Of a DNA stretch of 64,000 nt, positions 37,091 through 60,357 are shown piece after piece. Within the stretch, counting starts at the first letter, position 1. Every line of letters starts with the position of its first letter. Made by a program: the position numbers and the translations under genes. A model generated the notes under the pieces. That model was not told the origin of the DNA, did no database searches, and saw only the letters and a program-made list of their open reading frames with translations. Origin of the DNA: an uncultured Thermoleophilia bacterium (GTDB taxonomy: Bacteria > Actinomycetota > Thermoleophilia > UBA2241); assembly GCA_963767505.1 (NCBI GenBank), contig CAVYDV010000008.1, positions 358,937 to 422,936 on the forward strand. The letters are read 5' to 3'.

Positions 37091-37486
37091 ATGCGCATCG
37101 TCGCTCTCGATCACGGAGCGGTGCGTACTGGGGTCGCGATCTCGGATGAGACGGCCACTCTGGCGCGGCCTCTCACCACGCTCGCAAAGGTTGACACGGC
37201 GCCGGGCTTCTCGGCGCTGCTCGCGTTGCTCGAGGCCGAAGCGCCCGGACTCATCGTGGTAGGGTTGCCCGTGTCCCTTGACGGCCGCGAACACGAGCAG
37301 GCGCGACACGCGCGGTCCTTCGCGGAGCGCCTCAGGCTGGCGGTGGCCCTTCCCGTGGAGCTGTACGACGAGCGCTTCACGAGCAGGATCGCTGACCAGC
37401 GCGGTGGCCGCGCGTCGCGCGACGCGCGGGCCGCTGCAACGCTGCTCGAGGACTACCTGAGGATGATCGGTGAGCCGACCTTCTAG
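37091..37486 (+). CDS. ruvX: Putative pre-16S rRNA nuclease / Holliday-junction-resolvase-like YqgF
   Basis: MRIVALDHGAVRTGVAISD start, 131 aa. Conserved alaS-ruvX-mltG order. Confidence 0.85.
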   Translation: MRIVALDHGAVRTGVAISDETATLARPLTTLAKVDTAPGFSALLALLEAEAPGLIVVGLPVSLDGREHEQARHARSFAERLRLAVALPVELYDERFTSRIADQRGGRASRDARAAATLLEDYLRMIGEPTF

Positions 37487-38831: not shown

Positions 38832-39641
38832 ATGGGCGACCCCGTAGCGCACTCGCTGTCGCCGGCGGTCCACAACGCCGCCTTCGCAGCAGCGGGCCTC
38901 GACATGGTCTACGTGCCGCTGCCGGTGCGCGCCCAGGACGTCGGCGCCGCGGTCAACGGCCTTGTCGCCCTTGGCTTCCGCGGCGCCAACGTGACCGTCC
39001 CTCACAAGGGAGCCGTGATCCCGTGGCTCGACTGGCTCGACGACGACGCCCGCCTCGCGCAGGCGGTCAACACGATCGTCGTCGAAGATGGCGTGCTACG
39101 CGGCTACAACACCGATATCGACGGCGCACGCACGGCGCTGGTCGGCGTATGCGGAGACTCCTTGCGCGGCTCCCGCGCCCTTGTCCTCGGAGCCGGGGGC
39201 GCCGCGAGAGGTGTCGCGCTGGCGCTGGCGAGGCTGGGCGCCGTGCTCACGGTCGTGAATCGTACCGGCGCTGGAGCCGAGCGCCTCGCCGCGCTCGCCG
39301 AAGCCGGCGTGCCCGGCGCCGCCTGCCGCTGGCTTCCCCTCGACGAACTCACGCCGGCGGATGTCGCGCAGCAGAGCCTGCTTGTCAATGCGACCTCCCT
39401 CGGGATGACAGGAGCAGGTAAAGTCCCCGCGTCGTTGGTCGATACAGTGTCAGCAGGGCAAGTCGTATTCGATGTTGTGTACGGCCGCACGGAGACAGAT
39501 CTGCTGCGGCAGGCGCGCAGCCGGGGGGCCCAGACGGTGGACGGCAAAGCCATGTTTCTGGCCCAGGCGATTGGGGCCTTCCGACTCTGGACGGGTCAGG
39601 CGCCACCGGCAGACGTGATGCAGACTGCACTGAACTCATGA
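38832..39641 (+). CDS. aroE: Shikimate dehydrogenase; homology appears to extend upstream of the first ATG
   Basis: GDPVAHSLSPAVHNAAF and NVTVPHK. The in-frame upstream codons read ..TQVIGIM, the usual beta-1 strand, but lack a canonical start. TTG 38771 is in another frame. The stop overlaps the pilB ATG. Confidence 0.85.
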   Translation: MGDPVAHSLSPAVHNAAFAAAGLDMVYVPLPVRAQDVGAAVNGLVALGFRGANVTVPHKGAVIPWLDWLDDDARLAQAVNTIVVEDGVLRGYNTDIDGARTALVGVCGDSLRGSRALVLGAGGAARGVALALARLGAVLTVVNRTGAGAERLAALAEAGVPGAACRWLPLDELTPADVAQQSLLVNATSLGMTGAGKVPASLVDTVSAGQVVFDVVYGRTETDLLRQARSRGAQTVDGKAMFLAQAIGAFRLWTGQAPPADVMQTALNS

Positions 39642-41533
39642 GCAAATCGGGAAGTGGGGACTTGGAGTCCACGACGTTCGACACTGACGAGGGCATCGCC
39701 GTCGACGAGGCGATCGTCCTGCTCGAGCAGCCCGAAGTCGAGAGGCTCGACCTGCCGGCGAGTGATTCCGTGCCCGAAGCCAATGGGAACGGCTCCAACG
39801 GCGAGCGTGGAGTGACCACCGCCGATGCCTTGGACGGCTTCGTGCGCACGCAGCGCGCCTCCAAGCTCAGCCTCGGCGACATCCTCAAGGACATGGGTCT
39901 CGCGACAGAGAAGCAGATCACGACGGCGTTGGCGAAGCAGAAGGAGACGCGGCAACGCATCGGCCAGATCCTCATCGATGACGGCTCGATCAGTCAGCTC
40001 GATCTGACGAAGGCCCTGGCCAACAAGTTCGGCGTAGCCTTCCTCGACCTCTCGGACACGACCCTCGAACCCGCCGCCGCCGGAACGATCGACGAGAAGC
40101 TGGCGCGACGGTACGGCGCTGCGCCCATACGCTATGTAGACGAGAACACGCTGCTCGTCGCCATGGTCGACCCCCAGAATCTGCTGGCGCTCCAGGACCT
40201 CGAGATCATCACCGGCTACGGCATCCAGGCGGCGATCGCCAGCGAGGAGGACGTGTACGGCGCCATCTCCAAGATCTACCGCGACCGCCCCGAGGTCGAT
40301 CTGGACGAGGCCGACCTGGCAGACCTGGACGACGGCGCCGACGTCGCCGACATCCGCGACGCCACCGATGAGGCGCCGATCGTCAAGCTGGTGAACTCGA
40401 TCATCGCCCAGGCTGTCGACGACGGCGCCAGCGACATCCACTTCGAGCCGCAGATGAAGGAGCTCTCGATCCGCTTCCGCATCGACGGCGTGCTGCAAGA
40501 GATCATGTCGGTCCCGCGGCGCATGCTGAGCGGCGTCATCAGCCGCCTCAAGATCATGGCCGACCTCGACATCGCCGAGCGCCGCGTTCCGCAGGACGGT
40601 CGAATCGGCCTCATGGTCGGCGGCCGGCCCATCGACATGCGTGTCGCCACTCTGCCGACCGTCTACGGCGAGAAGATCGTCATGCGCCTCCTCGACAAGT
40701 CCAACGTCATGCTCGACCTCGAGGATCTGGGCTTCTCGGAGAAGGCGCTGAAGCGCTTCCGCGGGTCGTTCACGAAGCCCTACGGCGCCATCCTGGTGAC
40801 GGGGCCCACCGGCTCCGGCAAGTCGACGACGCTGTACGCGGCGCTCAACATCCTCAACTCCACCGAGAAGAACATCATCACCGTCGAGGATCCGGTCGAG
40901 TACCGCCTCGGCGGCATCAACCAGGTCCAGGTCAACACGCGCGCCGGGATGACCTTCGCCGCCGCGCTGCGCTCGATCCTGCGCTGCGACCCCGACATCG
41001 TGATGATCGGCGAGATCCGCGACCGCGAGACGGCGCAGATCGCCGTCGAATCGGCGCTCACCGGACACCTCGTGCTCAGCACGCTCCACACCAACGATGC
41101 CCCTGGGGCGCTCTCGCGGCTCACCGAGATGGGCATCGAGCCGTTCCTCTCGTCTTCGGCGGTCGATTGCGTGCTGGCCCAGCGCCTCGCGAGACGCCTC
41201 TGCACGGTCTGCAAGGAGCCCTACACTGCGACGCGCGAGATGCTGCGCAAGAACGACTTCCCCGCCGAAGTGTGGGAGCGCGACGATGTCGTCCTGCATC
41301 GCGCCAAGGGCTGCCCGCGGTGCAAGAACACGGGCTACAAGGGGCGTCTCGGCCTCTACGAGGTGATGATCGTGAGCGAGGCGATCCGCCGATTGACCGT
41401 GGAGCGCAAGAGCGCCGACGAGATCTCCCGGGTGGCCAAGGCGGAGGGCATGAAGAGCCTTCGCGAGGACGGCATCGACAAGGTACTGCAAGGGGCGACC
41501 TCCTTCGAGGAGATCGCCCGCGTCATCATCTGA
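39638..41533 (+). CDS. pilB: Type IV pilus assembly ATPase PilB (GspE family) with MshEN-like N-terminal domain
   Basis: Intact 631 aa. Walker A GPTGSGKST, Asp box, Walker B, His box, tetracysteine CTVCKEPY..CPRCKNTGYKGR. The N-terminal T2SSE_N region has two 24-aa motifs (aa 78-101 and 107-130). Confidence 0.9.
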   Translation: MSKSGSGDLESTTFDTDEGIAVDEAIVLLEQPEVERLDLPASDSVPEANGNGSNGERGVTTADALDGFVRTQRASKLSLGDILKDMGLATEKQITTALAKQKETRQRIGQILIDDGSISQLDLTKALANKFGVAFLDLSDTTLEPAAAGTIDEKLARRYGAAPIRYVDENTLLVAMVDPQNLLALQDLEIITGYGIQAAIASEEDVYGAISKIYRDRPEVDLDEADLADLDDGADVADIRDATDEAPIVKLVNSIIAQAVDDGASDIHFEPQMKELSIRFRIDGVLQEIMSVPRRMLSGVISRLKIMADLDIAERRVPQDGRIGLMVGGRPIDMRVATLPTVYGEKIVMRLLDKSNVMLDLEDLGFSEKALKRFRGSFTKPYGAILVTGPTGSGKSTTLYAALNILNSTEKNIITVEDPVEYRLGGINQVQVNTRAGMTFAAALRSILRCDPDIVMIGEIRDRETAQIAVESALTGHLVLSTLHTNDAPGALSRLTEMGIEPFLSSSAVDCVLAQRLARRLCTVCKEPYTATREMLRKNDFPAEVWERDDVVLHRAKGCPRCKNTGYKGRLGLYEVMIVSEAIRRLTVERKSADEISRVAKAEGMKSLREDGIDKVLQGATSFEEIARVII

Positions 41534-41555
41534 CAACCGCACGAAGGAAGTGGAG

Positions 41556-42630
41556 ATGGATCTGGTCGACGTCCTTCTCGAGGTCCTGGAACGCGATGCC
41601 AGCGACCTGCACCTCTCGGTGGGGTCGCCGCCCATCATCCGCATCAACGGCGCGCTCGAGCGGCTCGACTACCCGAGGCTCGAGGCCAACGACACCCGCG
41701 AGCTCATCTACAGCATCCTCTCGCAGGACCAGCGCCAGCGCCTCGAGAACGAGTGGGAGATCGACTTCTCGTACTCGGTCCCGGGCAGAGCGCGCTTCCG
41801 CGTCAACGCCTTCTTCCAGCGCAACAGCCTGGGAGCGGCCTTCCGCCTGATCCCCATCCAGATCAGGCCGCTCGAGGAGCTCGGTCTGCCCAAGGCGCTG
41901 CACGAGCTCACCAGGAAGCCGCGCGGCTTCGTCATCGTCACCGGGCCGACCGGCTCGGGCAAGTCGACGACGCTGGCGGCGATGATCGACGAGATCAACG
42001 AGACACGCGACGAGCACATCATGACGATCGAGGACCCCATCGAGTTCCTCCATCGCCACAAGAAGTGCATGGTGAACCAGCGCGAGGTGGGCGCCGACAC
42101 CAAGGGCTTCAACCGCGCCCTCAAGAGCGTTCTGCGCCAGGACCCGGACATCATCCTGGTCGGCGAGATGCGCGACACCGAGACGATGGCCACGGCGCTG
42201 ACCGCGGCCGAGACCGGGCACCTCGTCTTCGCGACCCTGCACACCCAGGACGCGCCGCAGACGATCGACCGCATCATCGACGTCTTCCCGCCGCACCAGC
42301 AGGAGCAGGTCCGCGTGCAGCTCTCGACCACCCTGATGGGCGTCTGCACGCAGCAGCTGCTGCCGACCCGCGACGGGCGCGGTCGCGTCGTCGCCTGCGA
42401 GGTCCTCATGCCGACGCCCGCGGTGCGCAACCTCATCCGCGAGGGCAAGACGCACCAGATCTACTCGGCCATGCAGACGGGGTCGGCCTTCGGCATGCAG
42501 ACGATGGACGCGGCGCTCGCCGACCTGGTGCGCCGCAACATCATCAGTCGCGAGCTGGCCATGCATCGCTCCAGCGACCCGAACGGGCTGGAGCGGCTGG
42601 TCGGGCAACCAGTGCCCGATGGGGGTCTAA
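41556..42630 (+). CDS. pilT: Type IV pilus retraction ATPase PilT; the 3' end needs a 1-nt correction in a G5 run
   Basis: SDLHLSVGSPPIIRINGAL, Walker A GPTGSGKST, GEMRD, AETGHLVFATLHT, ..VRNLIREGK. The frame reads on into pilC unless G5 (42621-42625) is G4. That would give ..PVPDGV-TAA (42628-42630), followed by GGGAGGA and the pilC ATG. Confidence 0.85.
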
Positions 42631-42639
42631 GGGAGGATC

Positions 42640-43854
42640 ATGAGCACCTTCGCCTACAAGGCGCTCGACGCCAGAGGCATGGCCGCGGGCGGACAGATCG
42701 ACGGTGCCAGCAAGGCCGCCGCGGCCGCTGCCCTGCGTCACCGGGGCCTCACCGTCCTCGACCTCAACGAGGTCAAGCGCGGCATCGGGCAGATCGAGAC
42801 TCGGCGGTCGCATCAAGCCCAAGGACCTGACCATCTTCTCGCGGCAGTTCGCGACCATGGTCAACTCGGGTCTCTCGATGCTGCGCTGTCTCTACGTGCT
42901 CGAGGAGCAGACGCAGAACAAGAAGCTCGCCAAGGTCGATCGGCGCCGTGCGCGCCGACGTCGAGGCCGGCATCATCCTGTCGGACGCGCTCGAGAAGCA
43001 CCCCAAGGTGTTCAGCCGGCTCTACGTCAGCATGGTCCGCGCCGGAGAGGTCGGCGGCATCCTCGATGAGGTGCTCAACCGCCTGGCGACCCAGCTGGAG
43101 AAGGAAGACAGCATCCGCCGCGCCGTCAAGTCGGCCATGGTGTACCCGGTGGTCATCGGCGTGTTCGCCATCCTCGTCCTGGTCGGCATGGTGATGTTCC
43201 TCATCCCCATCTTCGCCGGCATGTACAAGGAACTCGGGGACGCCGAGCTGCCGCTCCTCACGCGTATCATGGTGGGCCTCTCGGAGATCTTCCGCAGCTG
43301 GTGGGGTCTCGTCATCCTGGGTGTGATCATCCTCCTCATCTGGGTCGTCGCCCGGCTCAAGCGCACGCGAGAAGGGCGCCATGGTGTGGGACCGCTTCAA
43401 GCTGCGCATCCCCATGGGCATCGGCCAGATCGTCCGCAAGCTCGCCATCGCGCGCTTCTCGCGCACCCTGGGCACGCTCATCTCTTCCGGCGTGCCCATC
43501 CTCCAGGCTATCGAGATCACCGGCCAGGCAGCCGGCAACGCCGTCATCGAGCACGCCATGAAGGATGTGCAGCAGAGCGTCAAGGAGGGCGAGCCGATCA
43601 CCACCCCTCTCGAGAAGGTCTCGGTGTTCCCGCCCATGGTCACGCAGATGATCGCCGTGGGCGAGGAGACGGGCTCGCTCGACGCCATGCTGGGCAAGAT
43701 CGCCGACTTCTACGAGGACGAGGTCAACGCCAGCATCAAGTCGCTCACCTCGATCATCGAGCCCATCCTCATGCTCGGCGTCGGCATCATCGTCGGCATC
43801 GTCGTCATCTCGATGTACCTGCCGATCTTCAACATGATGAACATCGTCAAGTAG
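42640..43854 (+). CDS. pilC: Type IV pilus inner-membrane platform protein PilC (GspF family); 3 frame breaks
   Basis: MSTFAYKALDARG.., two GspF repeats (..LTIFSRQFATMVNSGLSMLRCL.., ..IARFSRTLGTLISSGVPILQAI.., PPMVTQMIAVGEETGSLD). Breaks at ~42795, ~42940 and ~43378. Confidence 0.85.
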
Positions 43855-43873
43855 GTCGCGGAAGGGATCTGCC

Positions 43874-44615
43874 GTGGAGAACGAGCAGCTGATCGCCGGA
43901 TATGCGACGAGCGGGTCGGCCGCGGCGCTCGACGAACTCGTCCGCCGCAACCAGAACCTGCTGCACCATATCCTCAAGCGTTTCGCGTACGCCAACGAGT
44001 CCTACGAGGACCTTCTGCAGGTCGCCAATCTGGGGCTCATCAAGGCGGCACAGCGCTACGACGCCACACGGGGCACGCGCTTCTCGACCTATGCGACGGC
44101 GATCATCGACGGCGAGTTGCGCCACCATCTGCGCGACTCGCTGCTCCTGCGACAACCTCGCTGGGTCAAGAAGGTCTACGCCGATATCCAGGTCAAGTCG
44201 AACGAGCTCATGCACAAGCTCGGCCGGGCTCCGGAGCTGGGCGAGATCGCGGCGGCTCTGAACATCGACGAAGACGGCATCCTCGAGGTCATGCGCCTCT
44301 ACGCGCGCATCGATCTGCACAGCCAGAACGAGCCGTACAGCGGCGACGACATGGGCATCGAGGCAGATCGCCAGTCCGTACGGGCCCTGCGGCAGGAGTC
44401 GTTCGCGCTGCCCATCGAGGACCGGATCGTCCTCTACGACGCTCTCGACACTCTCACTGGGTTCCAGCGTCGGCTCGTCTACCTCCTCTTCTTCAAGCAA
44501 CTCACGCAGTCCGAGGTCGCAGACCTGCTCGGCTTGAGTCGAAGGTCTCGCGCGAGCAGATCAAGCTGCTCGCACGACTTCGCCAAGCGTCTGCGCGGCT
44601 GGCCGCTTCACGATA
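43874..44615 (+). CDS. Group-3 sigma-70 family factor (FliA/SigD/WhiG-SigF-like) encoded inside the pilus cluster; one frame break (~44537)
   Basis: Region 2 (YEDLLQVANLGLIKAAQRYDATRGTRFSTYATAIIDGELRHHLRD), region 3 (LGRAPELGEIAAALNIDEDG), region 4 (RRLVYLLFFKQLTQSEVADLLGLS | KVSREQIKLLARLRQ..). Corrected stop TAG 44613-44615. GTG lies 19 nt after the pilC stop. Confidence 0.8.
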
Positions 44616-44855
44616 GTGCGGGCAAGAGACCCGCCTGCGCGGCTGCAGGCAGCGTCAGCGCCGCGCTGAGGCGTCCCCCGACTGGCGCACGGCCTGCCCC
44701 TCGATGGCCACTCCCGTCCACACGAGGGCATCCGTCGGCCGCTCACCGATCACGCAGTTCCTCGCCGCCGACCACGTGTCGACGAACCACTAGACGCTTG
44801 TTCCAGTCTGGGAGTGCCTGATCGGGGCAGAGTAGGTGTGCGTCAGACAGTCGCC

Positions 44856-44883
44856 TAAAGTGTCAACACGCGATTGCCGAAAG
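44856..44883 (+). promoter_or_regulatory. Candidate sigma-28-type promoter TAAAG-N15-GCCGAAAG upstream of the pilA leader
   Basis: TAAA at 44856-44859, a 16-nt spacer, then GCCGAAAG at 44876-44883 (consensus TAAA-N15-GCCGATAA). A second copy with identical spacing is at 51830-51857. Confidence 0.5.
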
Positions 44884-44919
44884 AGTGTCTAGGAAACGCA
44901 CAAGGAGGCACACTAGGGA

Positions 44920-45000
44920 CGAAAGCGATAAAGGCAAACCACCCGCGAGGGTGGGGCGCAAAGCTACAGGACTCACAGAGTCGGCTGAGCTGCCGCTACA
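44920..45000 (+). promoter_or_regulatory. Candidate c-di-GMP-I (GEMM-I) riboswitch aptamer in the pilA 5' leader
   Basis: GGCAAACC (44933-44940). Helix CCACCC/GGGTGG capped by GNRA loop GCGA (44939-44954). GGCGCAAAGC (44955-44964). A 12-bp second hairpin (44962-44991). Closing pairs GGC/GCC and AGC/GCT. Confidence 0.65.
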
Positions 45001-45155
45001 GGAGCGTTCAACAAAGCCTGTGAAGCCCGGCCGCGCCAAGCCAGAGCTTCGCAGGCTTCTTCTGTGGGGTCCGCGCAGGAAGCAGGGTCGGCAAGTCGTA
45101 CTACGCAGTCGTGTACATGTGGGGCAACGCACCAACAGAGAGGAGATGGCAGAAC

Positions 45156-45542
45156 ATGAAGCGTTTCACCAAAAAGCAGGGGGGCTTCACCCTCATCGAG
45201 CTCCTGATCGTGATCATCATCATCGGCATCCTCGCCGCGATCGCGATCCCGATGTTCCTCAACCAGCGCACCAAGGCCAAGGACGCAGGCGTCAAGGAAG
45301 GCACGCACAGCATCCAGATCGGCGTGCAGAGCTACGCCGTCGACAACAACGACGTCTATCCGCTGACCGCCACCATCGTCGCCGACGTCACGCCTCAGCT
45401 CGACCCGTGGCCGGACAACTCGTTCACCGGTGCCGCTATGGCCAACGACGGCGCCTTGGGCAACTTCACCTACGCGTCTGTCGCCGGAGCCGACTACACG
45501 CTCCTGGGTGTCTTGAGCGGCGGCAACTTCGTGGTGCGCTAG
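45156..45542 (+). CDS. pilA: Type IV major pilin (class III signal peptide)
   Basis: MKRFTKKQG|GFTLIELLIVIIIIGILAAIAIP shows a prepilin leader, cleavage-site Gly, Phe+1 and Glu+5. RBS AGAGAGGAG. 128 aa. Confidence 0.92.
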   Translation: MKRFTKKQGGFTLIELLIVIIIIGILAAIAIPMFLNQRTKAKDAGVKEGTHSIQIGVQSYAVDNNDVYPLTATIVADVTPQLDPWPDNSFTGAAMANDGALGNFTYASVAGADYTLLGVLSGGNFVVR

Positions 45543-45567
45543 GCAACTCCATTAAGAGAAGCCGTGT

Positions 45568-45603
45568 GCAGCGGGACGGGGCCATAAGGCCCCGTCCCGC
45601 TGC
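45568..45603 (+). terminator. Strong stem-loop after pilA (16-bp perfect stem, loop ATAA); candidate terminator
   Basis: GCAGCGGGACGGGGCC-ATAA-GGCCCCGTCCCGCTGC read directly, 26 nt after the pilA stop. No T-tract. Confidence 0.6.
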
Positions 45604-45748
45604 GTTGGGCCCCACGGTCGCCGCGCACAGGAGTGAGTGCGGTGGGCGGCGAACACCCAATTGCGTCGCCGTCCGATCGCACCGGGCCATTGCGAGCGAC
45701 GAGCGGTTCTCGGACTGGAACGACCCTGCGAAAGGCGGATGCGAGGGA

Positions 45749-46513
45749 ATGGTTCAGGAAGACCTGACTACCAGCATCGAGCCGTCGGCGAACGACGCTG
45801 GCGGTCCGGCCGTTCTGATTGCGGCCTCCACAAGACGGTCGCCGTCGGGTTCCGGCGCCGGAAGGTTGACATCCTGAAGGGCGTCGATCTCGTCGTCAAC
45901 CGGAATGAGGTGTTCGGCCTCCTGGGGCCCAACGGAGCGGGCAAGACGACGACCGTGAAGGTCGCCCTCGGCCTGATGAGAGCCGACGGCCGGCAACGCC
46001 CGCCTCGGCGTCGACGGGCTCGCGCGCGTCGGCTACCTCCCGGAGAACGCCTACTTCTACGACTATCTCTCGGGGCGCGAGTTCCTGGCGTTCTGCGCCC
46101 GTCTCTTCGCGCTCGACCCGGACGTGCGCCACGAGCGCGTCGACGAACTGCTGTGCGACGTCAGCCTCGAGGCGGCGGCCGACATCCACCTGCGCAAGTA
46201 CTCCAAGGGCATGCTGCAGCGCATCGGCATCGCGCAGGCGCTCATCAACGACCCGGAGCTGGTGCTCCTCGACGAGCCCATGACGGGACTCGACCCGGTC
46301 GGCCGGGTCGAGGTCAAGCGCATCATCCAGGACCTCCACGAGCGCGGCAAGACCGTACTCTTCAACTCCCACATCCTCGGCGATGTCCACGAGCTCTGCT
46401 CGCGCATCGCCATCATGCGCGCCGGCCGCGTCGTATGGACCGGAGCCGTCGCCGAGGCCCTGAACGAGGCGGCCTCCCTCGAGGACTTCTTCATGAAGGT
46501 GGTGACGGCATGA
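45749..46513 (+). CDS. ABC transporter ATP-binding protein (ABC-2 type, PilH-like position); 2 frame breaks
   Basis: ..[30 protein letters not shown] (Walker A), [15 protein letters not shown] (signature), [12 protein letters not shown] (Walker B). Breaks at ~45820 and ~45985. Confidence 0.8.
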
Positions 46514-47275
46514 ACCAGGTCGTGGCCATCGCCATGAACACATTCCGCGAGACGATCCGCGACAGAGTTCTCGCGGTCATCGTGGTGTTCGCCCTGCTGA
46601 TGATCGCCGGCGGCCTCTGGCTGGGCAGCATCAGCCTCGGCGAGCAGGGACGCATGATCATCGACTTCGGGTCTGGTCGCAGTCACGGGCTTCGGGCTCA
46701 TCGTGGCGGTGTTCGTGGCCGCCAGCCTGGTGCACAAGGAAGTCGAGAAGCGCACCGTGTTCGTGCTTTTCTCCAAGCCGGTGAGCCGTGCAGCGTTCAT
46801 CGCCGGCAAGTTCCTCGGCCTCTGCGGCACGATGGCCGTTGTGCTCACCGGCATGGGGCTGTTCCTCTTCGCGCTCGTCTGGCTGGTCGCCGGGCAGGCC
46901 TCGGGCATGGTGCTCCTCGCCGTGCTCATGATCTACGTGCAGCTTCTCGCCGTCGTCGCAGTCACGGTCTTCTTCTCGACCCTGGGCTCGGCTATCCTAG
47001 CGGCCGTGCTCGGCATCTGCGTGTTCGTGGCCGGGCAGCTCAGCCACAACGTCCTTTCTCTGACGCGCCTCGGCGACAATCCCGTCACCGAGGCCCTCTC
47101 CTGGGTGGTCTACGTCATCATCCCCAACTTCTCGGCGGTCGACGTGAAGGCCGGCGCCGTCGGGGAGCAGACGCTCGCCTGGGGGCAGATCGGGCTGTGG
47201 GCGGCGTACCTGCTCGCCTACATCGTCGTCGCCCTGGCGCTGGCTACCGTCGTCTTTCGCCGCAAGGAGTTCTGA
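46510..47275 (+). CDS. ABC-2 family transporter permease (PilI-like position); one frame break (~46670)
   Basis: ATGA overlap with the ATPase gene. [20 protein letters not shown].. and about six hydrophobic segments. Confidence 0.75.
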
Positions 47276-47277
47276 GC

Positions 47278-48021
47278 GTGTTTCGACGAGTGGTCGCCAT
47301 CATCGTGGTCGCGGCGTGTGCCGCAGGAGTGCTGGCCTACCAGGCGACGCGGCCTGCAAAGGCTCCGGCGGAGCCGCGGGTGTTCGTTCCTCCACCGCAG
47401 GTCTTTCTCGACTTCTCGCCGAGCTTCCGCACGTCGATCGCCGACGTCTACTATCTGAACATGGTTCAGTACTACGGCGAGCACGTCAATGGAGACGGGC
47501 GCCTCGACTCACTGCCTCAGATGGTCGACCTCGTCACGGAGCTGAGTCCACACTTCACGCGGCCGTACCGCTTCGGGGCCTTCGGCCTGGTCGACGCCGG
47601 GCAACCAGGAGCCAGCTACGAGATGCTCGAACGCGGCTTCGCCGCGAACCCCGACGACTGGCGATTCCCGTCATACCTCGGGTACTTCACCTACACATAT
47701 GCCAGCAACAAGGACAAGGACCGCATCGCCGCGGACTGGTACTCGAAGGCTGCCGCGATGCCGGGGAGCCCCGACTACCTCAAACGGCTCGCTGCGGTGC
47801 TTCACGGCAAGGGTGGAGAGACGCAGAAGGCCGTCCTGATGTGGGGGCAGGTCTACGCCGACGGCGACAAGTACTCCCGCCAGAAGGCCGTCGACGGTCT
47901 CGACCGCATCCTGCCGAAGGGCAAGCAGGCCCGGATGAAGGCCCTGGCTCCGCTCGTCGACACCATGCCCGAGGACGAGCTGAACCAACTCATCGCCGAG
48001 CTCTTCGCGGGGTACGAGTGA
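47278..48021 (+). CDS. Hypothetical membrane-anchored protein (247 aa), third gene of the ABC module
   Basis: GTG 47278 lies 2 nt after the permease stop. N-terminal TM helix ([17 protein letters not shown]), then a helical/aromatic-rich domain (..[12 protein letters not shown].., ..[27 protein letters not shown]..). Intact. Confidence 0.6.
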
Positions 48022-48046
48022 GTCGCGCGCTGACCATGGTCCGCCC

Positions 48047-48824
48047 GTGACGGCCTCCCTCGTGGTCATCGCCGTCCTCTTCGGCCTCCTCATCGGCAGC
48101 TTCCTCAACGCCTGGGCTTGGCGACTCGCTCATGAGGAGAAAATCAGCAGCGGCCGCTCTGCATGCCCGAAGTGCCACCATCAGATCCGCGCCTACGACA
48201 ACATCCCTGTGATGAGCTGGCTCATCCTCCGAGGGCGCTGCCGAGACTGCGGGACGTCGATCAGCTGGCGCTACCCGGTGGGGGAGGGGGTGACTGCCGT
48301 CTTGTTCGGTAGCCGTCGCCGCCTTCGATGGCCTGAGCTGGCTGCTCGTCCCGCATCTGATCTTCGTCTCGGTGATGATCCTCATCAGCCAAGTGGACCT
48401 GGAGACGATGATCATCCCCGACGTCGTGATCCTCCCGGCGGCGCTCATCGGCCTTCCATTGATGATCGCCCTGGGTGACGGCCCTTGGTGGGAGTGGCCG
48501 CTGGCCGGGCTCGCTGCCGCGGGCGCGCTCTGGCTGATCGGCGAAGCCTACTACCGGCTGAGACATGTCGAGGGTCTGGGATTCGGCGACGTCAAGCTGG
48601 CACTCTGCATGGGCGTGTACCTCGGCGCCGCCGTGGTCCCTGCCGTCTTCATCGGCTTCATCAGCGGCGCCCTTATCGGAGTCGCTGTGATAGGCGTGCG
48701 CAAGGCCGGCGCGAAGACCGCCGTTCCCTTCGGACCATTCCTGGCTGCCGGCGCAATAGTCGCCCTGTTCGCCGGCCAGTGGCTCATCGACGCGTACCTC
48801 GGTCTCGCCTTCCCCGATCGCTGA
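48047..48824 (+). CDS. pilD: Prepilin peptidase (A24 family) PilD; one frame break (~48305)
   Basis: N-terminal Cys pairs CPKCHH..CRDCG, then ..ISQVDLETMIIPD.. and GLGFGDVKL (the two catalytic Asp contexts). Confidence 0.85.
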
Positions 48825-48966
48825 GCAGGCGGTACGTCATCCGGGTGACCACTCCGTCACCCTCGTGACCTTCCGCCTGCTCGGCTAGGCTGGCTGCGTT
48901 CTCCCCCCGGGTCGACACGAGGCATCCTCCCGGCCTCGTTCGACCCCCTCCCGCCGGAGGTGAGGA

Positions 48967-49419
48967 ATGCGCCAGCAGAGAGGCTCCACCCTGTTCGAGC
49001 TCATGACCGTGCTCGCCGTCGGCGGGCTCCTGGCGGGCATCGCGATCCCTGGGGTCGGCGCAGCGCGGCGCACGCTGGCCGGCGATGCGGGGGCGCGAAT
49101 GCTCGCGCTCGTTCTGCGCGCCGCGCAGTCCCGAGCCCAGGCGCACGCAACGACAGTGACGGTGGCGATAGCGGGCGACGGCGCCTACACAGTGCACGAG
49201 GCGCAGACTGGCGCCGGGCCCTCGAGTGGGCCCGCGCTCGTCGCCTCCGGTGGGCTGGGGGCGGATGTCGGAAGCAACTACCCGTCCGCCGTCGTCGAGT
49301 TCGGTCCGCGGGGATGGCCCCGCCTGCCCGGCTACGGGAGTCCGCGAGCCGGCACCTTCACCGTGGGCGGCGACAACCGGGTCGTCCTGCAGCTGGGCGG
49401 CTGCATCCGATGCAGATGA
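48967..49419 (+). CDS. Minor pilin / pseudopilin (GspH/FimT-like)
   Basis: MRQQRG|STLFELMTVLAVGGLLAGIAIP prepilin N-terminus. RBS GGAGGTGAGGA. Intact 150 aa. Confidence 0.75.
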   Translation: MRQQRGSTLFELMTVLAVGGLLAGIAIPGVGAARRTLAGDAGARMLALVLRAAQSRAQAHATTVTVAIAGDGAYTVHEAQTGAGPSSGPALVASGGLGADVGSNYPSAVVEFGPRGWPRLPGYGSPRAGTFTVGGDNRVVLQLGGCIRCR

Positions 49420-50013
49420 GCAGTTCGGGCAGAGGGTTCTCGCTCATCGAAGCCATAGTCGCCGTCGCCGTTCTGCTCGCCACCTGCCTCGCGGTGAGCG
49501 CCAGTCTGGCGGTGGCGCTCCAGGCGGATCGGCAAGTCGAGAGGCGCGACACGCTGGAGGGGATCCTGGGGTCCGAAAGCGCGCGTCTGGCTTCCCTGCC
49601 CTTCCGCCGGACGACGGCGCCACCTGTCGCGGGCGTGGCGTGGAGCCCAGACCCGCGCTCGCTGCTCGGCGAGGTCTTTCCGCACGCAGACGCAGGGCAC
49701 GACGGCGACGGCTCCTACCACGTCGAGGGCGGCGTCGGCGTGTTCGTCGCGAGCCGTACCACTGAAGGCTTCGAGATATTCAGCGAGGCGCGCTTCGTGC
49801 GACGCAAGCCACGCAGGGTGGGTACCCGTGCCCGCGGCGTCCTTGCAGGGTTGGAGCGTCTGGGGTACTCAGCCTCTCCCTGCGGCGACGGTGGAACTGC
49901 GCCTCACGGCGTCGCGAGGCTCCGCCACTGCGTCCGCTCAGATGATCCTCGGCGCGCTGCGAACCAGAGTCAGCCCTATAGCGTCTGCTCTCGGAGGCTC
50001 TCGTGAGGGCTAG
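49410..50013 (+). CDS. Minor pilin (PilV-like); possible frame break ~49815
   Basis: MQMSSSGRG|FSLIEAIVAVAVLL. The C-terminus looks more protein-like in the +1 frame (..VELRLTASRGSATASAQMILGAL..). The start overlaps the previous stop. Confidence 0.65.
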
Positions 50014-50581
50014 GCTGATCGCCCGTCGGCCCTGCGCGTCCCGTCCGATCGGGGGAGTCCCCAGCCAGGGCGGAGCGACGCTCACGGAACTGCTTGTGGC
50101 TCTTTCCCTGTCGGCGGTCGCGCTCGCTGCCGCCTGGCCATGGCTCTGGAACGTCGCCGAGGTCGCTCGTGCCGCGGACGCCAGAGCCCAGGCCGCGACG
50201 TCATCTGCCTTCGCCACGCGCAGCATCGCAGCCGATCTCGAGTGCGCTACGGCACTGCTCGCCCCGCCACCTGGCGCGTCGCCAGAGCGCTGTCTCCAGC
50301 TGACGCATGCTCACCCTGGCCAGACGCGTGAGACGGTCCTCATTGCCTGGAGCGCGCCACGGCGAGTTCTGTGGCGCAAGACGACGGCGACATACCTCGC
50401 CGACAACGTCGAGTCATTCACGATCACGTACTTCGACCACCACGGCGAACCCTTGGCGCCAATCGACTTGGCCCAGCCGGCGTGGCCTGACACGGTCAGC
50501 AGAGTGCGCATCAGGGTCGGCGTGTCAACGCCCTTGGGATCCTCCAGCGCCGCTTGCGACGTGGTACTGCGCGCCCGATGA
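50003..50581 (+). CDS. Minor pilin (PilW/GspJ-like)
   Basis: ..SQGG|ATLTELLVALSLSAVALAAAW prepilin-type N-terminus. Intact 192 aa. Confidence 0.7.
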   Translation: MRARLIARRPCASRPIGGVPSQGGATLTELLVALSLSAVALAAAWPWLWNVAEVARAADARAQAATSSAFATRSIAADLECATALLAPPPGASPERCLQLTHAHPGQTRETVLIAWSAPRRVLWRKTTATYLADNVESFTITYFDHHGEPLAPIDLAQPAWPDTVSRVRIRVGVSTPLGSSSAACDVVLRAR

Positions 50582-51718
50582 AGGGCCCCCGACGCGCAGA
50601 CGGCTACGCTCTTGTTGCCGCATTGGTGATCATCGCTCTGGCGGGCACGCTAGCAGCGCTCTGCATTGCTGCCGCCTCCGCGCAGCAGGAGATATCGGGC
50701 GTAGACCGTCAGGCAGCCGCCGCCACGGCAGCGATCAATGAGGGACTCGACGACGTCTGTGGCCAGCTCCGCTGGATTCCGCAGACTCGCTCCGGCACTC
50801 GACGATCGGCGCCAGGGACGGGCAGCCGTTGGGCCGCCACCTGGCGCCCAGCGATCCCCGCGGCTGCAGGGACGCCAAGGCTCACGCTCGACCTCACATC
50901 GATGGATGCTCGCGCCCAGCGCAGCCTTCAGGCGATCGTCGAGCTTCGCCCGGAGCTCGTCTCGCAGGGCGTAGTGGTCTCGGGTGACGTGGATCTCCGG
51001 GCCCCGACCACTATCAGCGGGAGCGGCGTCTACACAGGCGGCTGCCTGCGAGGGCGCCAATGGCTGCGGTTCACAAGCGGTGACCTTGCGGCCCGTCTGC
51101 CCCCGCGCGCGACGAGGTGCATCCGGAGATGTGGTCGATGGCCGGCGTCCGCGCTATGGGCGGCATCTGGGCAGACGGCAATGAGATTCACGCTCCGGGA
51201 GAGGCCTCCGCATGGACGGACGACACTGACACGCACACGCCCGAAGACGGCCTTGCCGACCTCACGCGCGCCTTCGACCAGGACCTGCTCTGCGCGCTGA
51301 GTGAGCAGGCCATCCCTCCCGGTGATGCTCTGATCGACGGCGTCCTCGATCTGGCGCGTCTGCCCGCCCGCCCAGCGAACGGCGGCGTCGAGGCCATCGT
51401 CGTACTTCGTACGACCCGTGGCCGACGCGACGCTCCTCATCGTTGGCGCGCGCAGCGCTGCGGATTGTCCACTCGTGCTGATCGTCGACGGCGACGCGTG
51501 CTTCGGGCTTCCCGACTCGCCACCGATCTTCGCGCGGGGCGCACTCGTGGTCGCCGGAGGACTTCGAAGTCAGGGGGCCCACTCGCTATGCCGGCCACGT
51601 CCACGCCCAACAGCTTCTGATCGATGCGCCGACGCACTTCGAGGTGCCCCGCGACTGGCGAGAGCGCCCTCTCCCGGGCCTCACTGAGCCCGTCATCGTC
51701 GCGCTTTCCGGATCATGA
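50578..51718 (+). CDS. PilX-N-like large minor-pilin/tip-associated protein; ~3 frame breaks
   Basis: MKGPRRADGYALVAALVIIALAGTLAAL has a hydrophobic N-terminus without Glu+5, as in PilX/GspK. The coding signal follows frames 1 > 0 (~51105) > 1 (~51415) > 2 (~51570), ending at TGA 51716-51718. Confidence 0.55.
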
Positions 51719-51829
51719 CCCTCAGACGCAGGAGGCCGGACGAATGCTCTGTACCTCGTTTACCCAGTATGAGAGACTTGTGCCATGTGCAGGGAAGGTG
51801 CCGAAAGCAGCTCGGCGAACTCTGCGTCT

Positions 51830-51857
51830 AAAGGTATCCGTGCTGTCTGCCGACAAC
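51830..51857 (+). promoter_or_regulatory. Candidate sigma-28-type promoter TAAAG-N15-GCCGACAA upstream of pilM
   Basis: TAAA at 51830-51833, a 16-nt spacer, then GCCGACAA at 51850-51857 (7/8 to GCCGATAA). It lies 36 nt upstream of the pilM ATG, which has RBS GAAGGGG. Confidence 0.5.
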
Positions 51858-51892
51858 GCCGCCAGAGCGGCGATGTGAGTGAAGGGGCTGGA

Positions 51893-52996
51893 ATGGGGAA
51901 GAGTGGACCGCGCGTCGGGATCGACTTGGAGCAGTCCTCGATCGCCGGGGCGCAGGTGAACGGCTCGCGGCAGGGGCATGCATTGACTCATGCTGCCGTC
52001 CGATCCCTCCCACCGGGATTGATGTTCGAGGGCGAGGTCGTCGACGTAGAGGGTCTCGCCGCGGAACTCAAGTCCTTCTGGAAGGCGAGCGGCTTCAGCG
52101 GCAAGAGGTTCGCCCTCGGAGTCGCGAACCAGAAGGTCGTGGTCCGCACCATGGACTTCCCGATCATGGACGAGAAGGAGTTGCGCGCCGCGATCGAGTT
52201 CCAGGCCCAGGAGGCCATTCCCATCCCGCTCGCTGACGCCATCCTCGACTTCGAGGTACTGACGACAAGCTCTGGTCCAGACGGCGGCGGCTCCCAGAAG
52301 GTGCTGATCGTCGCGGCGCAACGAGAGATGGTCGAGCAGTTCGTAGAGGCAGCGCGAAAGGCCGGACTCACCATCGACGGACCTCGACCTGCAGGCGTTC
52401 GCCCTCATGCGGTCGATGGCTCCCCCGGTTGCGTTCGTCGATCAGGGTTCGCAATCTGCCGGAGAGGCGACGGCGCTCGTCAACATGAGCTCCAGCACCA
52501 CCAACCTCGTCGTGGCCGTCAACGAAGTACCCCAGTTCACGCGCGTCGTGAACCTCGGCTGCGAAGCGCTTCTTGAGGCGCTTGATGACCAACCGCGGCA
52601 TCAATCACGATGAGGCCGACGTCCTGCGTCTCAACGTGGGGCTCACCGGCTCGGAGCCGCCGTTCGCGGACCTCGAACAAGAGACGCTGGCCGAGGTCCA
52701 TCGGGTCCTCGACACCGCCTGCGAGGCGTTCGCCGACGAGGTGCGCAGGTCGATCGACTACTACCACTCCCAGGACAACCCCGGGCAGATCGGCGAGATC
52801 CTGCTCAGCGGCGAGGGCGCCCTGACGCGCAACATGTGCGACTACCTGGCGCAAGCGCTCCACCTGAGCGTCGCGCTCGGGAATCCCCTGCAGCATCTCA
52901 GCGAGAACAAGACGAGCATTCCCCAGAGCCGACCTTGAGGCGATCTCTCCGCGCCTCGCCGTCGCCTTGGGTCTCGGCCTGGACAGCGAGGAGTAG
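51893..52996 (+). CDS. pilM: Type IV pilus assembly protein PilM (actin-like ATPase fold); 3 frame breaks
   Basis: ..RVGIDLEQSSIAGAQV.., ..FALGVANQKVVVRTMDFPIMDEKELRAAIEFQAQE.., ..LVNMSSSTTNLVV.., ..ILLSGEGA.., C-terminal ..ISPRLAVALGLGL. Breaks at ~52385, ~52585 and ~52925. Confidence 0.8.
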
Positions 52997-53002
52997 GCGG
53001 CC

Positions 53003-53665
53003 ATGAAGCGTTTCAACCTTCTGCCTCCCGAACAGCGCGTCAAGGCGTCGCGCGATCGAGGAATGCTGTATGCCATCTTGGGCCTCGTCGTGCTCGTGCT
53101 GGCCCTCGGCGCCGTCTATCTCCAGCAGAACAGCGTGGTCAACGACCGACAGGCCGAACTCGATCGACTCAACGCCGAGAACCAGATCGTCCAGGCGCAG
53201 CTTGCGGAACTCCAGCCATACGCCGACATCCACAACCTGCGCACGGCCATGACTGAGACCGCCGTGAACATCTACGACGCGCGTGTGCCCTGGTCCAACA
53301 TCGTCGAAGAGGTCAGTCTAGTGATTCCTGAGAACGTTCGCCTGCAGACCATGAACTGCGTCGTCCCGCCGGAGATGCTCCCGGGGCCGGCTCAGCCCGA
53401 GACGACCGCCGACACCACGCCGACCGTCGACGTCACGTTCACCGGCGATACCTACACGCACAAGGACGTGGCCGAGTTCATGACGCGCCTCGGCCTCATC
53501 CCGCAGCTCACCGACATCCAGCTCGCCAGTTCCACGGAGTCGACCGGCCCCGTCGCAGCCGCGATTTCAGGCTCGACAGTGACGTTCACCGTGAACGCCT
53601 CGCTGCGGTCCTATATCAAGTCACCGCCGACGACCACTCTGCAGACCGCGGGGGCCACACAATGA
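53003..53665 (+). CDS. pilN: Type IV pilus assembly protein PilN
   Basis: MKRFNLLPPEQR is the conserved PilN N-terminal INLLP-type motif. It is followed by a TM helix and coiled coil. Intact 220 aa. Confidence 0.85.
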   Translation: MKRFNLLPPEQRVKASRDRGMLYAILGLVVLVLALGAVYLQQNSVVNDRQAELDRLNAENQIVQAQLAELQPYADIHNLRTAMTETAVNIYDARVPWSNIVEEVSLVIPENVRLQTMNCVVPPEMLPGPAQPETTADTTPTVDVTFTGDTYTHKDVAEFMTRLGLIPQLTDIQLASSTESTGPVAAAISGSTVTFTVNASLRSYIKSPPTTTLQTAGATQ

Positions 53666-54290
53666 AGAGAGCTCGCGGCAAAGAGGTCTACATCATCACC
53701 GCCGTCGTAGCGGTCGTCATCGCGGTCGCCTGGTACTTCCTCCTGCTCAGCCCCACGCGCAGCGAGATCGCCGACGAAGACGGATGAGGTGCAGGTCGCT
53801 CAGGCGAACCTGAACACCTCACGACAGCAGGTCACTCGGCTCGAGGCCTACAAGAAGACCGCCCCCCAGTCACGCGCCGAGATCGTGCGACTCGGCAAGA
53901 TGCTGCCGGTGAGCGAGGGCATCCCCTCGCTGATCGTCGAGCTGACGAAGACCGCCTCATCATCCGGCGTCGGGCTGGTCGGCATCACGCGCGGCGAATC
54001 CTCTCCCGGTGCGCCCTTCGGCATCCAGGCGGTCAACGTCCAGGTCAGCGGCCGTTTCTTCGAGACCGAGGACTTCCTGAACCGGCTTGAGAGCTACGTG
54101 GCGTTCAACAACGCCAACTTCCGCGTGACGGGCCGGCTTCTTCAGGTGGTCAGCGTCAATATGGCCGTCCAGGCCCTTGCTGACCGAGACCTCCGCCACT
54201 TCTCCTCCGCTCACCGTGAGCATCGTCCTGAACGCGTACCTCTGGGGTGGCGGTGCGTCCACCGCGGCGAGCGCGGGAGGTGCAACGTGA
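53662..54290 (+). CDS. pilO: Type IV pilus assembly protein PilO; 2 frame breaks
   Basis: ATGA overlap with pilN. TM helix (YIITAVVAVVIAVAWYFLLL), coiled coil, then ..IPSLIVELTKTASSSGVGLVGIT..VQVSGRFFETEDFLNRLE... Breaks at ~53783 and ~54168. Confidence 0.75.
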
Positions 54291-55099
54291 TCAAGAACAA
54301 GCGCCGACTCGCCCTCGTGGTCATCGCGCTAGTCCTCGGCGCGGCACTGGCGCTGGCAGTGGTGCTCTCCCGAGGCGACTCATCGGAGAGCACGGAAGCC
54401 AGCCAGGCCACGCCCTCGCCGGCCGCCACGACGCCCGTGGCCGCGCAGACCACAGACGACGACCCCCTCGCCGTCGACCCGGCGAAGCAGGAGCCGCTGC
54501 TCGACAAGTTCAAGAGCAAGGACCCCTTCATCCCGCTCACCGTGGCGAGCACCGGTAGCACCGGCGCCACCACCGGCACGACGACGAATACCAGCACGAC
54601 CGGCCTGAAGGCGAAGATCACCGTGAACGGAACCGCCTCCACGGTATCCGCGGGTGATGAGGTGCCCCCAGGTGGCGCCGTCTTCACGATCTCGAGCATC
54701 ACCGCCAGCAGCGTCACGTTCAAGCTCCTCTCCGGGGTGTTCGAGAACGGTGATTCCTCTGTGACCGTGGGCGTCGGCGAGAGCGTCAAGGTCACTCAGG
54801 ACGGTGGTCCGTCCTACACACTCACGGTGGTCAGCACCGGCAGCGCGAGCAGCACCACGACGTCCACGGCATCGGGCCACTCGATCACGGTGCTGAGCAT
54901 CAACGAGAGCAACGGGACCTCCCTCGTGTCCCTCGAGATCGACAAGAAGACGTACACGGACAAGAAGACGGGGCAGACCTTCAGCACCACGTGGGGCGAG
55001 GTCAAGGTCCTGTCGATCGACCAGGCTGCCCAGACCGTGACGATCATGCATGGCGATCAGACCATCACCTTGCGAGCAGGCCAAGTGGTCGTGAAGTAG
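54287..55099 (+). CDS. Membrane-anchored Thr/Ser-rich protein in the PilP position (PilP-like, two beta-rich segments)
   Basis: GTGA overlap with pilO. TM helix (LALVVIALVLGAALALAVVL), KDPFIPL motif, T/S-rich linkers. The two segments end ..FTISSITASSVTFKLL and ..VKVLSIDQAAQTVTIMHGDQTITLRAGQ. Intact 270 aa. Confidence 0.55.
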   Translation: MIKNKRRLALVVIALVLGAALALAVVLSRGDSSESTEASQATPSPAATTPVAAQTTDDDPLAVDPAKQEPLLDKFKSKDPFIPLTVASTGSTGATTGTTTNTSTTGLKAKITVNGTASTVSAGDEVPPGGAVFTISSITASSVTFKLLSGVFENGDSSVTVGVGESVKVTQDGGPSYTLTVVSTGSASSTTTSTASGHSITVLSINESNGTSLVSLEIDKKTYTDKKTGQTFSTTWGEVKVLSIDQAAQTVTIMHGDQTITLRAGQVVVK

Positions 55100-55124
55100 A
55101 GCCCAGCCGGATCCGCAGGTACGC

Positions 55125-55150
55125 ACGGGGCGGCTGCAATGCCGCCCCGT
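55125..55150 (+). terminator. Stem-loop after the pilus cluster (10-bp perfect stem ACGGGGCGGC/GCCGCCCCGT); candidate terminator
   Basis: Read directly 26 nt after stop 55099, followed by CCTGTTCC. Confidence 0.55.
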
Positions 55151-59763: not shown

Positions 59764-60331
59764 ATGGCAGAAGTAGTCTCCACGAACCAGTTCAAGAGCG
59801 GCATGGCGATCGAGATCGACGGTCAGCCGTTCACGATCGTCGAGTTCCAGCACGTCAAACCTGGCAAGGGTGGCGCGTTCGTGCGCACCAAAGTGCGCAA
59901 CATCGCCAACGGCGCGGTCCTCGACAAGACCTACCGCGCCGGCGAGAAGTTCGTGCGCATGCACACCCGGTCGCGCAAGATGGCCTACCTCTACTCGACC
60001 GAGGACGAAGTGGTCCTCATGGACAATGAGACGTACGAGCAGGTCTCCGTGAGCCGCCCCATGGCGAAGGACGCGCTCGAGTGGGTCGTGGAGAACATGG
60101 AGGTCGAGCTCCTGTTGCATCAACGACGCCCCGTTCGAGGTGGCGGCGCCGAACTTCGTCGAGCTGACGATCACTCAGTCGGATCCCGGCGTGCGCGGCG
60201 ACACAGCTCAGGGGGCCACGAAGCCGGCCGTCCTCGAGACAGGCGCCGTCGTGCAGGTGCCGCTGTTCGTCGAAGAGGGTCAGCGCGTCAAGGTCGACAC
60301 GCGCACCAGGGAGTATCTGAGCCGCGCCTGA
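59764..60331 (+). CDS. efp: Elongation factor P; one frame break (~60120)
   Basis: ..[37 protein letters not shown].. | ..[39 protein letters not shown]... Confidence 0.9.
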
Positions 60332-60357
60332 CGGCGCGCCGGGGACAGGAGGACGCG

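Follow-up and report, generated by a model that had tools for sequence, protein, structure and literature searches.

The stretch analyzed here, a 64,000-nucleotide window (64 kb) of contig CAVYDV010000008.1 from an uncultured Thermoleophilia bacterium of the phylum Actinomycetota, carries a chromosomal type IVa pilus (T4aP) gene cluster of the single-membrane (monoderm) form. The cluster lies exactly between the shikimate pathway gene aroE and the block aroC-aroK-aroB-aroQ. It is a real and well-conserved monoderm variant of a known machine, and we hold with good confidence the full reading of an old, vertically inherited locus whose frameshifts are most likely errors of the assembly. By homology, the pili would be made and would retract. 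New here are a conserved genomic address that is common across the phylum and perhaps beyond, a control layer that appears to combine cyclic di-GMP (c-di-GMP) with sigma-28-type promoters, and a component with a predicted PilP fold in a system that lacks a secretin. The window is high in GC (0.64–0.71) and belongs to contig C8 of a 2.54-Mb genome in 8 contigs.

Genes were called from a frame plot of GC at third codon positions (GC3) and a list of open reading frames (ORFs), followed by Pfam and NCBIfam scans. All features of the window described below lie on the + strand. The order pilB-pilT-pilC-(regulator)-pilA-(ABC transporter)-pilD-(four minor pilins)-pilM-pilN-pilO-(PilP-like), which had been read from the letters in the original prediction, was recovered with every named gene in its place. 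The pilB product (39638–41533) matches T2SSE with 485 bits and carries an N-terminal MshEN domain; its score of 649 bits on TIGR02538 is slightly below the equivalog cut-off of 675.65, and it is counted as a PilB-type extension ATPase. The product of pilT (41550 to about 42630) is a true PilT-family retraction ATPase, as predicted, with 504.6 bits on TIGR01420 (cut-off 319.1). The platform protein gene pilC (42640–43854) encodes two Pfam T2SSF domains. The major pilin gene pilA (45156–45542) encodes 128 aa with an N_methyl domain, a TIGR02532 match and the class III signal peptide MKRFTKKQGG/FTLIE, and pilD (48047–48824) encodes a prepilin peptidase and N-methyltransferase with A24_N_bact and Peptidase_A24 domains. 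Four minor pilin genes follow, identified by reading three frames and by Pfam N_methyl and GspH matches: a GspH/FimU-like gene (48967–49419), two further genes (49410 to about 50006 and 50003–50581) and a frameshifted PilX/GspK-like gene (50554 to about 51700). N_methyl was found on PilA and on three of the four minor pilins.

The distal part of the cluster encodes the predicted alignment complex. The gene pilM (about 51893–52940) was assembled from the frame plot and from PilM_2 (PF11104) matches on its N- and C-terminal pieces, pilN (53003–53665) matches PF05137, and pilO (about 53660–54250, ends uncertain) matches PF04350 and shares its frame with the next gene in the assembly. That last gene (54290–55099) encodes a membrane-anchored protein of 269 aa, named PilP-like for its position, topology and predicted fold. 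PilB, PilT, a single PilC with two T2SSF domains, a prepilin peptidase with class III pilins, and PilM-PilN-PilO together mark the locus as a T4aP system. A Tad (type IVc) system was considered and rejected, as the locus has one two-T2SSF PilC as opposed to TadB plus TadC, a 128-aa GFTLIE pilin as opposed to a short Flp, and both PilT and PilMNO. A Com system was likewise rejected as a reading of the cluster.

Two further elements of the cluster modify what had been expected from the letters. The regulator said to follow pilC is present (43874 to about 44615), but it is a group-3 sigma-70-family sigma factor of SigB/F/G-like type, with Sigma70_r2, r3 and r4 domains, and no PilS/PilR analogue. 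The ABC transporter between pilA and pilD is also present, as a frameshifted ATPase gene (45686–46513, ABC_tran) and an ABC-2 permease gene (46465–47275, ABC2_membrane_2), but a third conserved gene (47278–48021) comes directly after the pair. The ATPase orthologue from the related locus L056 has its best NCBIfam matches among models of the DrrA, GldA and NodI type. The third gene encodes an N-terminally anchored membrane protein of 247 aa that resembles tetratricopeptide repeat (TPR) proteins and has no Pfam match; among its 509 homologues, the 120 listed are 68–100% identical, JGI labels some as 'TPR repeat protein', and PF14559 occurs in one. In the proposed machine, PilD would mature PilA and the four minor pilins, and PilB and PilT would act on the PilC platform in extension and retraction, respectively. 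PilM, PilN and PilO would form the alignment complex with the membrane-anchored PilP-like protein, without a secretin, and the ABC-2 transporter and TPR-like protein may be accessory parts.

A profile search with PF00263 found no secretin in the window's own genome, nor in 100 of the 101 genomes examined from the class (all at least 90% complete, 11 of the same genus). The same search was positive in six control genomes, including Escherichia coli and Thermus thermophilus. The absence of a secretin, which had been noted for the cluster itself, thus extends to the genome and to nearly the whole class sample, and since no PilQ secretin was found, the locus is filed under the monoderm form of T4aP. 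The sole match among the 101 genomes (G372:C11:532–1002) lies right where a contig begins and may be a contaminant.

The assignment of the last gene as PilP-like is supported, but not proven, by position, topology, a motif and a modeled fold. The protein has no match in Pfam (including PF04351) or NCBIfam, and its 107 homologues are all unnamed and without a Pfam domain. A K-D-P-F motif in the linker is almost invariant, and F74, K77, P79 and F80 are invariant among the homologues. The AlphaFold2 model consists of a transmembrane helix, disordered Ser/Thr-rich linkers and two beta domains; BLASTP found no similarity between the two domains, so internal duplication is not shown. The C-terminal domain modeled alone reached a predicted local distance difference test score (pLDDT) of 94, while the full-length model gave weak and mixed matches only against the PDB. 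Foldseek matched the C-terminal domain to PilP in the Myxococcus xanthus T4aP machine model (3jc8_Pa; probability 0.99, TM-score 0.59, root-mean-square deviation (rmsd) 3.4), to Dickeya GspB (4wfw; 0.96, 0.57) and to Neisseria meningitidis PilP (2ivw; 0.94, 0.51), the most compact matches having rmsd values of 3.4–7.2 over about 75 columns. Two points speak against the fold assignment: the E-values of these matches are not significant (0.16–0.28, with TM-scores of 0.5–0.6), and a profile of the family searched against PDB sequences retrieved neither PilP nor GspC.

PilP is absent from Streptococcus sanguinis, and a review called its absence in monoderms 'logical', since PilP links to the secretin (Pelicic 2019, PMC6916266). 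The window, in contrast, keeps a protein with a predicted PilP fold. A conserved PilP-fold protein without a secretin would qualify the view of that absence as logical, and offers a test of the idea that PilP serves only in coupling to PilQ.

Upstream of the cluster lie alaS (34452–37088), ruvX (37091–37486), mltG/YceG (37470–38657) and aroE (38832–39641; Pfam Shikimate_dh_N and SDH_C), and downstream are aroC (from 55236; Chorismate_synt in two frames), aroK (from 56404; SKI), a frameshifted aroB (DHQ_synthase) between aroK and aroQ, and aroQ (from 58087; DHquinase_II), with which the block ends at 58554. These Pfam assignments bear out the predicted position between aroE and aroC. The predicted overlap of the aroE stop and the pilB start (ATGA, 39638–39641) is likewise present and recurs in relatives. 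A search with PilB retrieved 80 named loci, all in metagenome-assembled genomes (MAGs) of Actinomycetota and mostly labelled Thermoleophilia; the closest of these PilB sequences is 96% identical and comes from a Thermoleophilia MAG. Nearly all 80 loci have alaS-ruvX-mltG-aroE-pilB-pilT-pilC. Twelve of them, with a shorter cluster, show the complete series aroE-pilBTC-(pilA, pilD)-pilMNO-aroC-aroK-aroB-aroQ (L064–L069, L073, L077, L080, L081, L084 and L085); L080 is labelled an Acidimicrobiia MAG, and L065, L066, L069, L073, L077 and L085 are unclassified Actinomycetota. The contig of a Nitriliruptoraceae MAG (L071) breaks off after alaS-ruvX-mltG-aroE-pilB-pilT-pilC, the upstream half of the series. 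Only closer Thermoleophilia relatives have the sigma factor, the ABC pair and the TPR gene.

The arrangement extends well beyond the window's class. Peptidase_A24 occurs in 286 of 301 genomes from an even sample of the phylum, and the 20 kb around the best PilD match was inspected in 40 genomes from about 36 family codes. In at least 19 of these 40 loci, 17 of them outside the window's class, aroE and/or aroC flank pil genes; at least 6 retain PilD, alone or together with pilins, next to aroC or efp; and in 15 the best PilD lies elsewhere. Relatives with an uninterrupted aroE–aroC and pili elsewhere were looked for, and the same arrangement across many families was found instead. The locus is therefore not an insertion: the series aroE-pil…pilMNO-aroCKBQ is vertically inherited and widespread in Actinomycetota, and the cluster probably retains the old, full-length state that the original prediction had suspected.

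The same prediction had nevertheless called the cluster inserted in the shikimate operon, a description that does not hold. Type IV pilus (T4P) systems are often transferred, as found in a survey that also reported T4aP in monoderms, including Actinobacteria, and repeated loss of the secretin (Denise et al. 2019). That the cluster was recently acquired by horizontal transfer, into an aroE–aroC operon that had been contiguous, is, however, scarcely credible here. Dozens of divergent Actinomycetota have these flanks, and patristic distances of PilB follow those of AlaS across 38 loci (Mantel r 0.92, a value reached in none of 999 permutations). The composition of the cluster is not atypical, its GC (0.64–0.70) being like that of the rest of the window and both GC and GC3 being typical of the genome. 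Translation of pilB is coupled to that of aroE in several relatives, and a putative pilB promoter is embedded in aroE codons. None of the refuting outcomes named in the original prediction (an empty aroE–aroC site in relatives, atypical composition, or a secretin) was found.

The decay of the cluster together with the neighboring aro and efp genes, such that this genome no longer makes the pilus, is the alternative reading of its frameshifts. At least 12 single-base frameshifts fall between 42.6 and 60.3 kb of the window, as seen against intact orthologues from L006 (about 93% DNA identity) and L056. The original prediction did not mention these frameshifts, nor the riboswitch and promoter motifs described below. 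A +1 insertion near 42618 lets the pilT ORF run on to 42830, three single-base frameshifts (about 42799, 42939 and 43367) split pilC into four abutting pieces, and at least one near 44537 affects the sigma factor gene. The ABC-2 permease gene has one near 46670, pilD one near 48312 and pilM two, and the ABC ATPase gene, minor pilin gene 4, aroC, aroB and efp are also split between frames. That these indels are uncompensated, lie mostly outside homopolymers and spare ten genes just upstream would suit decay. Against it, aroC, aroB and efp are essential or near-essential genes, and the pieces abut exactly, are 68–100% identical to intact orthologues, and contain no in-frame stops, deletions or raised divergence. 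Among genomes of the same genus, 14 have an unbroken pilC reading frame and 6 others, of 10–40 contigs, have the gene split. The completeness of the window's genome is estimated at only 77.7%, yet it is assembled in 8 contigs. Exact abutment, kept identity, damage to housekeeping genes, low completeness and the splitting within the genus make assembly errors of a long-read MAG the most likely source of the frameshifts, and true decay improbable.

Several points weigh against the reading of an old, intact and functional pilus locus. The frameshifts are patchy, with none in the ten genes at 29.9–42.6 kb just upstream, and most of the indels are +1 insertions outside homopolymers, unlike the classic signature of long-read error. 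The counts of the phylum survey are lower bounds, as only the best PilD match per genome was considered; its family codes are anonymous, and the spread across classes is taken from NCBI MAG labels only. Function is read from homology alone, and the named loci include no cultured member of the clade.

Other lineages have reduced the locus, some of them to nothing more than a PilD-like gene. The original prediction had pointed to such a reduced state, with only a prepilin-peptidase-like gene between aroE and aroC, around Rv2551c of Mycobacterium tuberculosis; one paper lists Rv2551c as a 13.8-kDa membrane protein with four transmembrane segments. The reduced state does exist in some Actinomycetota. 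PilD-only remnants lie beside aro genes in five loci (L091, L106, L118, L120 and L123). In L106 the order is alaS-ruvX-mltG-aroE-PilD'-aroC-aroK-aroB-aroQ-pepP-efp, and in L123, from a closed 5.1-Mb genome, a Peptidase_A24 match immediately follows aroE. In a 5.1-Mb genome (G240), aroE is followed by a Peptidase_A24 match, with aroC about 4 kb further. The conserved address explains the orphan prepilin-peptidase-like genes that adjoin aro genes in other Actinomycetota, and it provides a simple marker for tracing gain, loss and reduction of the pilus machine. In the literature, no paper was found that connects a prepilin peptidase to shikimate dehydrogenase and to chorismate synthase, or that describes the position of this cluster between aroE and aroC in Actinobacteria or the PilD remnants, and nothing was found on a T4P–shikimate linkage in Clostridia.

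The junction between alignment-complex and shikimate genes is probably older than Actinomycetota, since the annotation of E. coli K-12 shows hofM-hofN-hofO-hofP-hofQ-aroK-aroB on one strand. A survey of T4aP secretins described pilMNOPQ flanked downstream by aroK and aroB as 'consistent with literature precedent', and in these Gram-negative loci, as in the window, the alignment-complex genes directly precede shikimate genes on the same strand (PMC7545093). This occurrence of the pilMNO(PQ)-aroK-aroB junction in Proteobacteria also argues against insertion. Compared to E. coli, the window lacks a secretin gene at exactly that junction, has aroC and aroQ in addition, and holds motor, pilin and peptidase genes in the same locus, with aroE on the other side. 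A tentative interpretation, which we consider possible but rather doubtful, is that the window's junction is the counterpart of the diderm pilM-N-O-P-Q-aroK-aroB and forms a syntenic scar, with pilQ deleted in place and PilP kept. If so, a diderm-type T4aP locus would have been passed down to the ancestor of Actinomycetota, and pilQ would have been lost together with the outer membrane. PilP would then have taken on a new single-membrane task, such as guiding the fiber through peptidoglycan, and where a single PilD-like gene stands between aroE and aroC in other Actinomycetota, that gene would be all that is left of the locus. A junction common to Proteobacteria and Actinomycetota bears on the question of the diderm-to-monoderm transition.

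Two elements point to control of the pilus by c-di-GMP. The pilA leader contains a c-di-GMP-I (GGC variant) riboswitch aptamer (44924–44998), assigned to Rfam RF03167 (clan CL00126) by its position in the 5' leader and a score of 66.9 bits, above the gathering threshold of 59 (E 3.8e-14). Aptamers of the c-di-GMP-I class that pass RF03167 or RF01051 precede pilA in four relatives (L011, L020, L023 and L056). The PilB MshEN domain matches the MshE-type c-di-GMP-binding motif model NF053729 with 53 bits (cut-off 38). Through this domain and the riboswitch, c-di-GMP would probably control both the activity and the expression of the pilus. In L011, which has two copies of the aptamer (15031–15105 and 15840–15914), one stands before each of two tandem pilA paralogues, and several relatives have 2–4 copies of pilA, compared to a single copy in the window. 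Immediately 3' of pilA, a strong GC-rich hairpin (45565–45606) is likely a terminator and would make pilA its own transcription unit; an Rfam 'ar35' match at 45470–45606 is below threshold, corresponds to this hairpin and was rejected.

Promoter-like motifs of the sigma-28/WhiG type are found at three positions, and would place such promoters before pilB, pilA and pilM. One lies inside aroE (39419–39442, TAAAG-N14-GTCGA), about 220 nt before pilB, one precedes the pilA leader (44856–44880, TAAAG-N15-GCCGA) and one is about 40 nt upstream of pilM (51829–51853). The pattern TAAA-N15-17-GCCGA has only two matches in the 64 kb, compared to 0.14 expected, and these are the ones before the pilA leader and pilM. 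In relatives the former is kept about 300 nt upstream of pilA, and in seven of them (L006, L011, L020, L024, L037, L043 and L044) the latter is kept about 60 nt before pilM. The aroE-internal motif occurs in about 26 relatives, where its second element reads GCCGATAA; the window copy has one mismatch. It is written in the codons for G-K-V-P…A-D-N. The relatives show no variation at synonymous positions within the −35 and −10 elements (GGT AAA G…, GCC GAT AA) while the spacer codons vary freely, a pattern that points to selection on the DNA itself. AAA and GAT are the rarer synonymous codons in high-GC genomes. Co-transcription of the motor genes with alaS-ruvX-mltG-aroE, as originally proposed, is consistent with the ATGA coupling but appears to be only part of the story, given the conserved sigma-28-type motif in the 3' end of aroE: pilB is probably both translationally coupled to aroE and served by a promoter of its own.

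Which sigma factor would read these promoters is a closer question. We lean slightly towards the WhiG/FliA orthologue of the genome, which would leave the sigma factor of the cluster with another task. The FliA/WhiG promoter consensus is TAAA-N15/16-GCCGATAA, to which the cluster motif is equal. A true FliA_WhiG member is encoded at C8:455551–456348, about 33 kb past the end of the window, scoring 277 bits on TIGR02479 (cut-off 190); it lies between a xerC-like gene and rpsB (xerC-whiG-rpsB-tsf), and no flagellin gene was found in this genome. The cluster sigma factor, represented by the orthologue from L056, reaches 80 bits on the FliA_WhiG model and does better on the SigB/F/G model (TIGR02980, 165 bits). 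Its retention right between pilC and the pilA promoter speaks for a part in pil transcription; it follows pilC only in closer Thermoleophilia relatives. A SigF/SigB-type pattern (GTTT-N14-18-GGGTA) has no match in the window, and a scan for the sigma-70 consensus found none at 38–57 kb. The lean towards WhiG comes from L064, L068 and L081, which lack the cluster sigma factor and still have the motif before pilB and pilA. Together, the riboswitch, the MshEN domain and the sigma-28-type motifs would form a compact and testable regulatory circuit for the pilus.

The gene order parallels that of M. xanthus, as had been predicted. The T4aP genes of M. xanthus form a single cluster with pilGHI; as in the window, the core genes are in one locus in the same relative order, B-T-C-(regulator)-A-(ABC)-D…M-N-O-P, with an ABC-type module between pilA and pilD (PMC6060248). 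M. xanthus PilP (3jc8) is also among the structures matched by the model of the window's last gene. The ABC/ABC-2/TPR trio may correspond to PilH/PilI/PilG, with which it agrees in position and in the broad ABC and ABC-2 families. Unlike M. xanthus, the window has no PilQ, TsaP or Tgl, its flanks are aro genes and not ribF, and a sigma factor, a riboswitch and sigma-28-type promoter motifs take the place of PilS/PilR with sigma-54. The monoderm T4aP systems of Firmicutes (S. sanguinis, Clostridium perfringens and Clostridioides difficile) are secretin-less like that of the window, whose lineage is Actinomycetota. In C. difficile a c-di-GMP riboswitch controls the major pilin, as proposed for the window; the riboswitch of C. 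difficile pilA1 is of class II, whereas that of the window is of class c-di-GMP-I.

The role of the pilus is less certain than its composition. The machine may be as described and yet serve mainly in DNA uptake (competence) or in adhesion and aggregation, not in twitching motility, a serious contender that we rate a little below even. T4aP serve in uptake, adhesion, aggregation and motility alike. Aggregation of C. difficile is reportedly driven by pilins under c-di-GMP riboswitch control, and the zoospore pili of Actinoplanes missouriensis, T4P said to have been studied experimentally in Actinomycetota, are reportedly adhesive. In A. missouriensis, which sporulates and bears flagella, FliA-family sigma factors are said to read at least the flagellar genes, whereas the window's genome has no flagellin. 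The sequence does not separate these roles, and PilT, along with a second PilT paralogue in the genome, fits any function that depends on retraction.

Pili so far called typical of Actinobacteria are Tad/Flp pili, for instance in Bifidobacterium breve and Micrococcus luteus (PMC6916266), and, apart from the Actinoplanes zoospore pili, the Actinomycetota pili that have been studied are of the Tad type (Pelicic 2019). Literature searches found nothing on Thermoleophilia pili. The locus shows that complete gene sets for a retractile T4aP are widespread in the deep classes Thermoleophilia, Acidimicrobiia and Nitriliruptoria, the upstream half being seen in the last. Matching MAG and metagenome records suggest a little-known group that is common in soils and waters.

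Paralogues of some pilus genes lie elsewhere in the genome. A second PilB-like ATPase, apparently in two frames, is encoded on the same contig (C8:942360–944031, 45% identity), and the second PilT (C4:460529–461404, 57% identity) and a pilA paralogue (C4:222492–222785, 39% identity) are on contig C4. No second pilC, pilD or pilMNO was found elsewhere in the genome. Downstream of the cluster, aroQ is followed by pepP and then efp on the + strand. An 809-aa ORF at 59764–62193 is an artefact, created where a frameshift joins the efp N-terminus (EFP_N) to a downstream carboxylase-like gene whose C-terminus is of biotinyl type.

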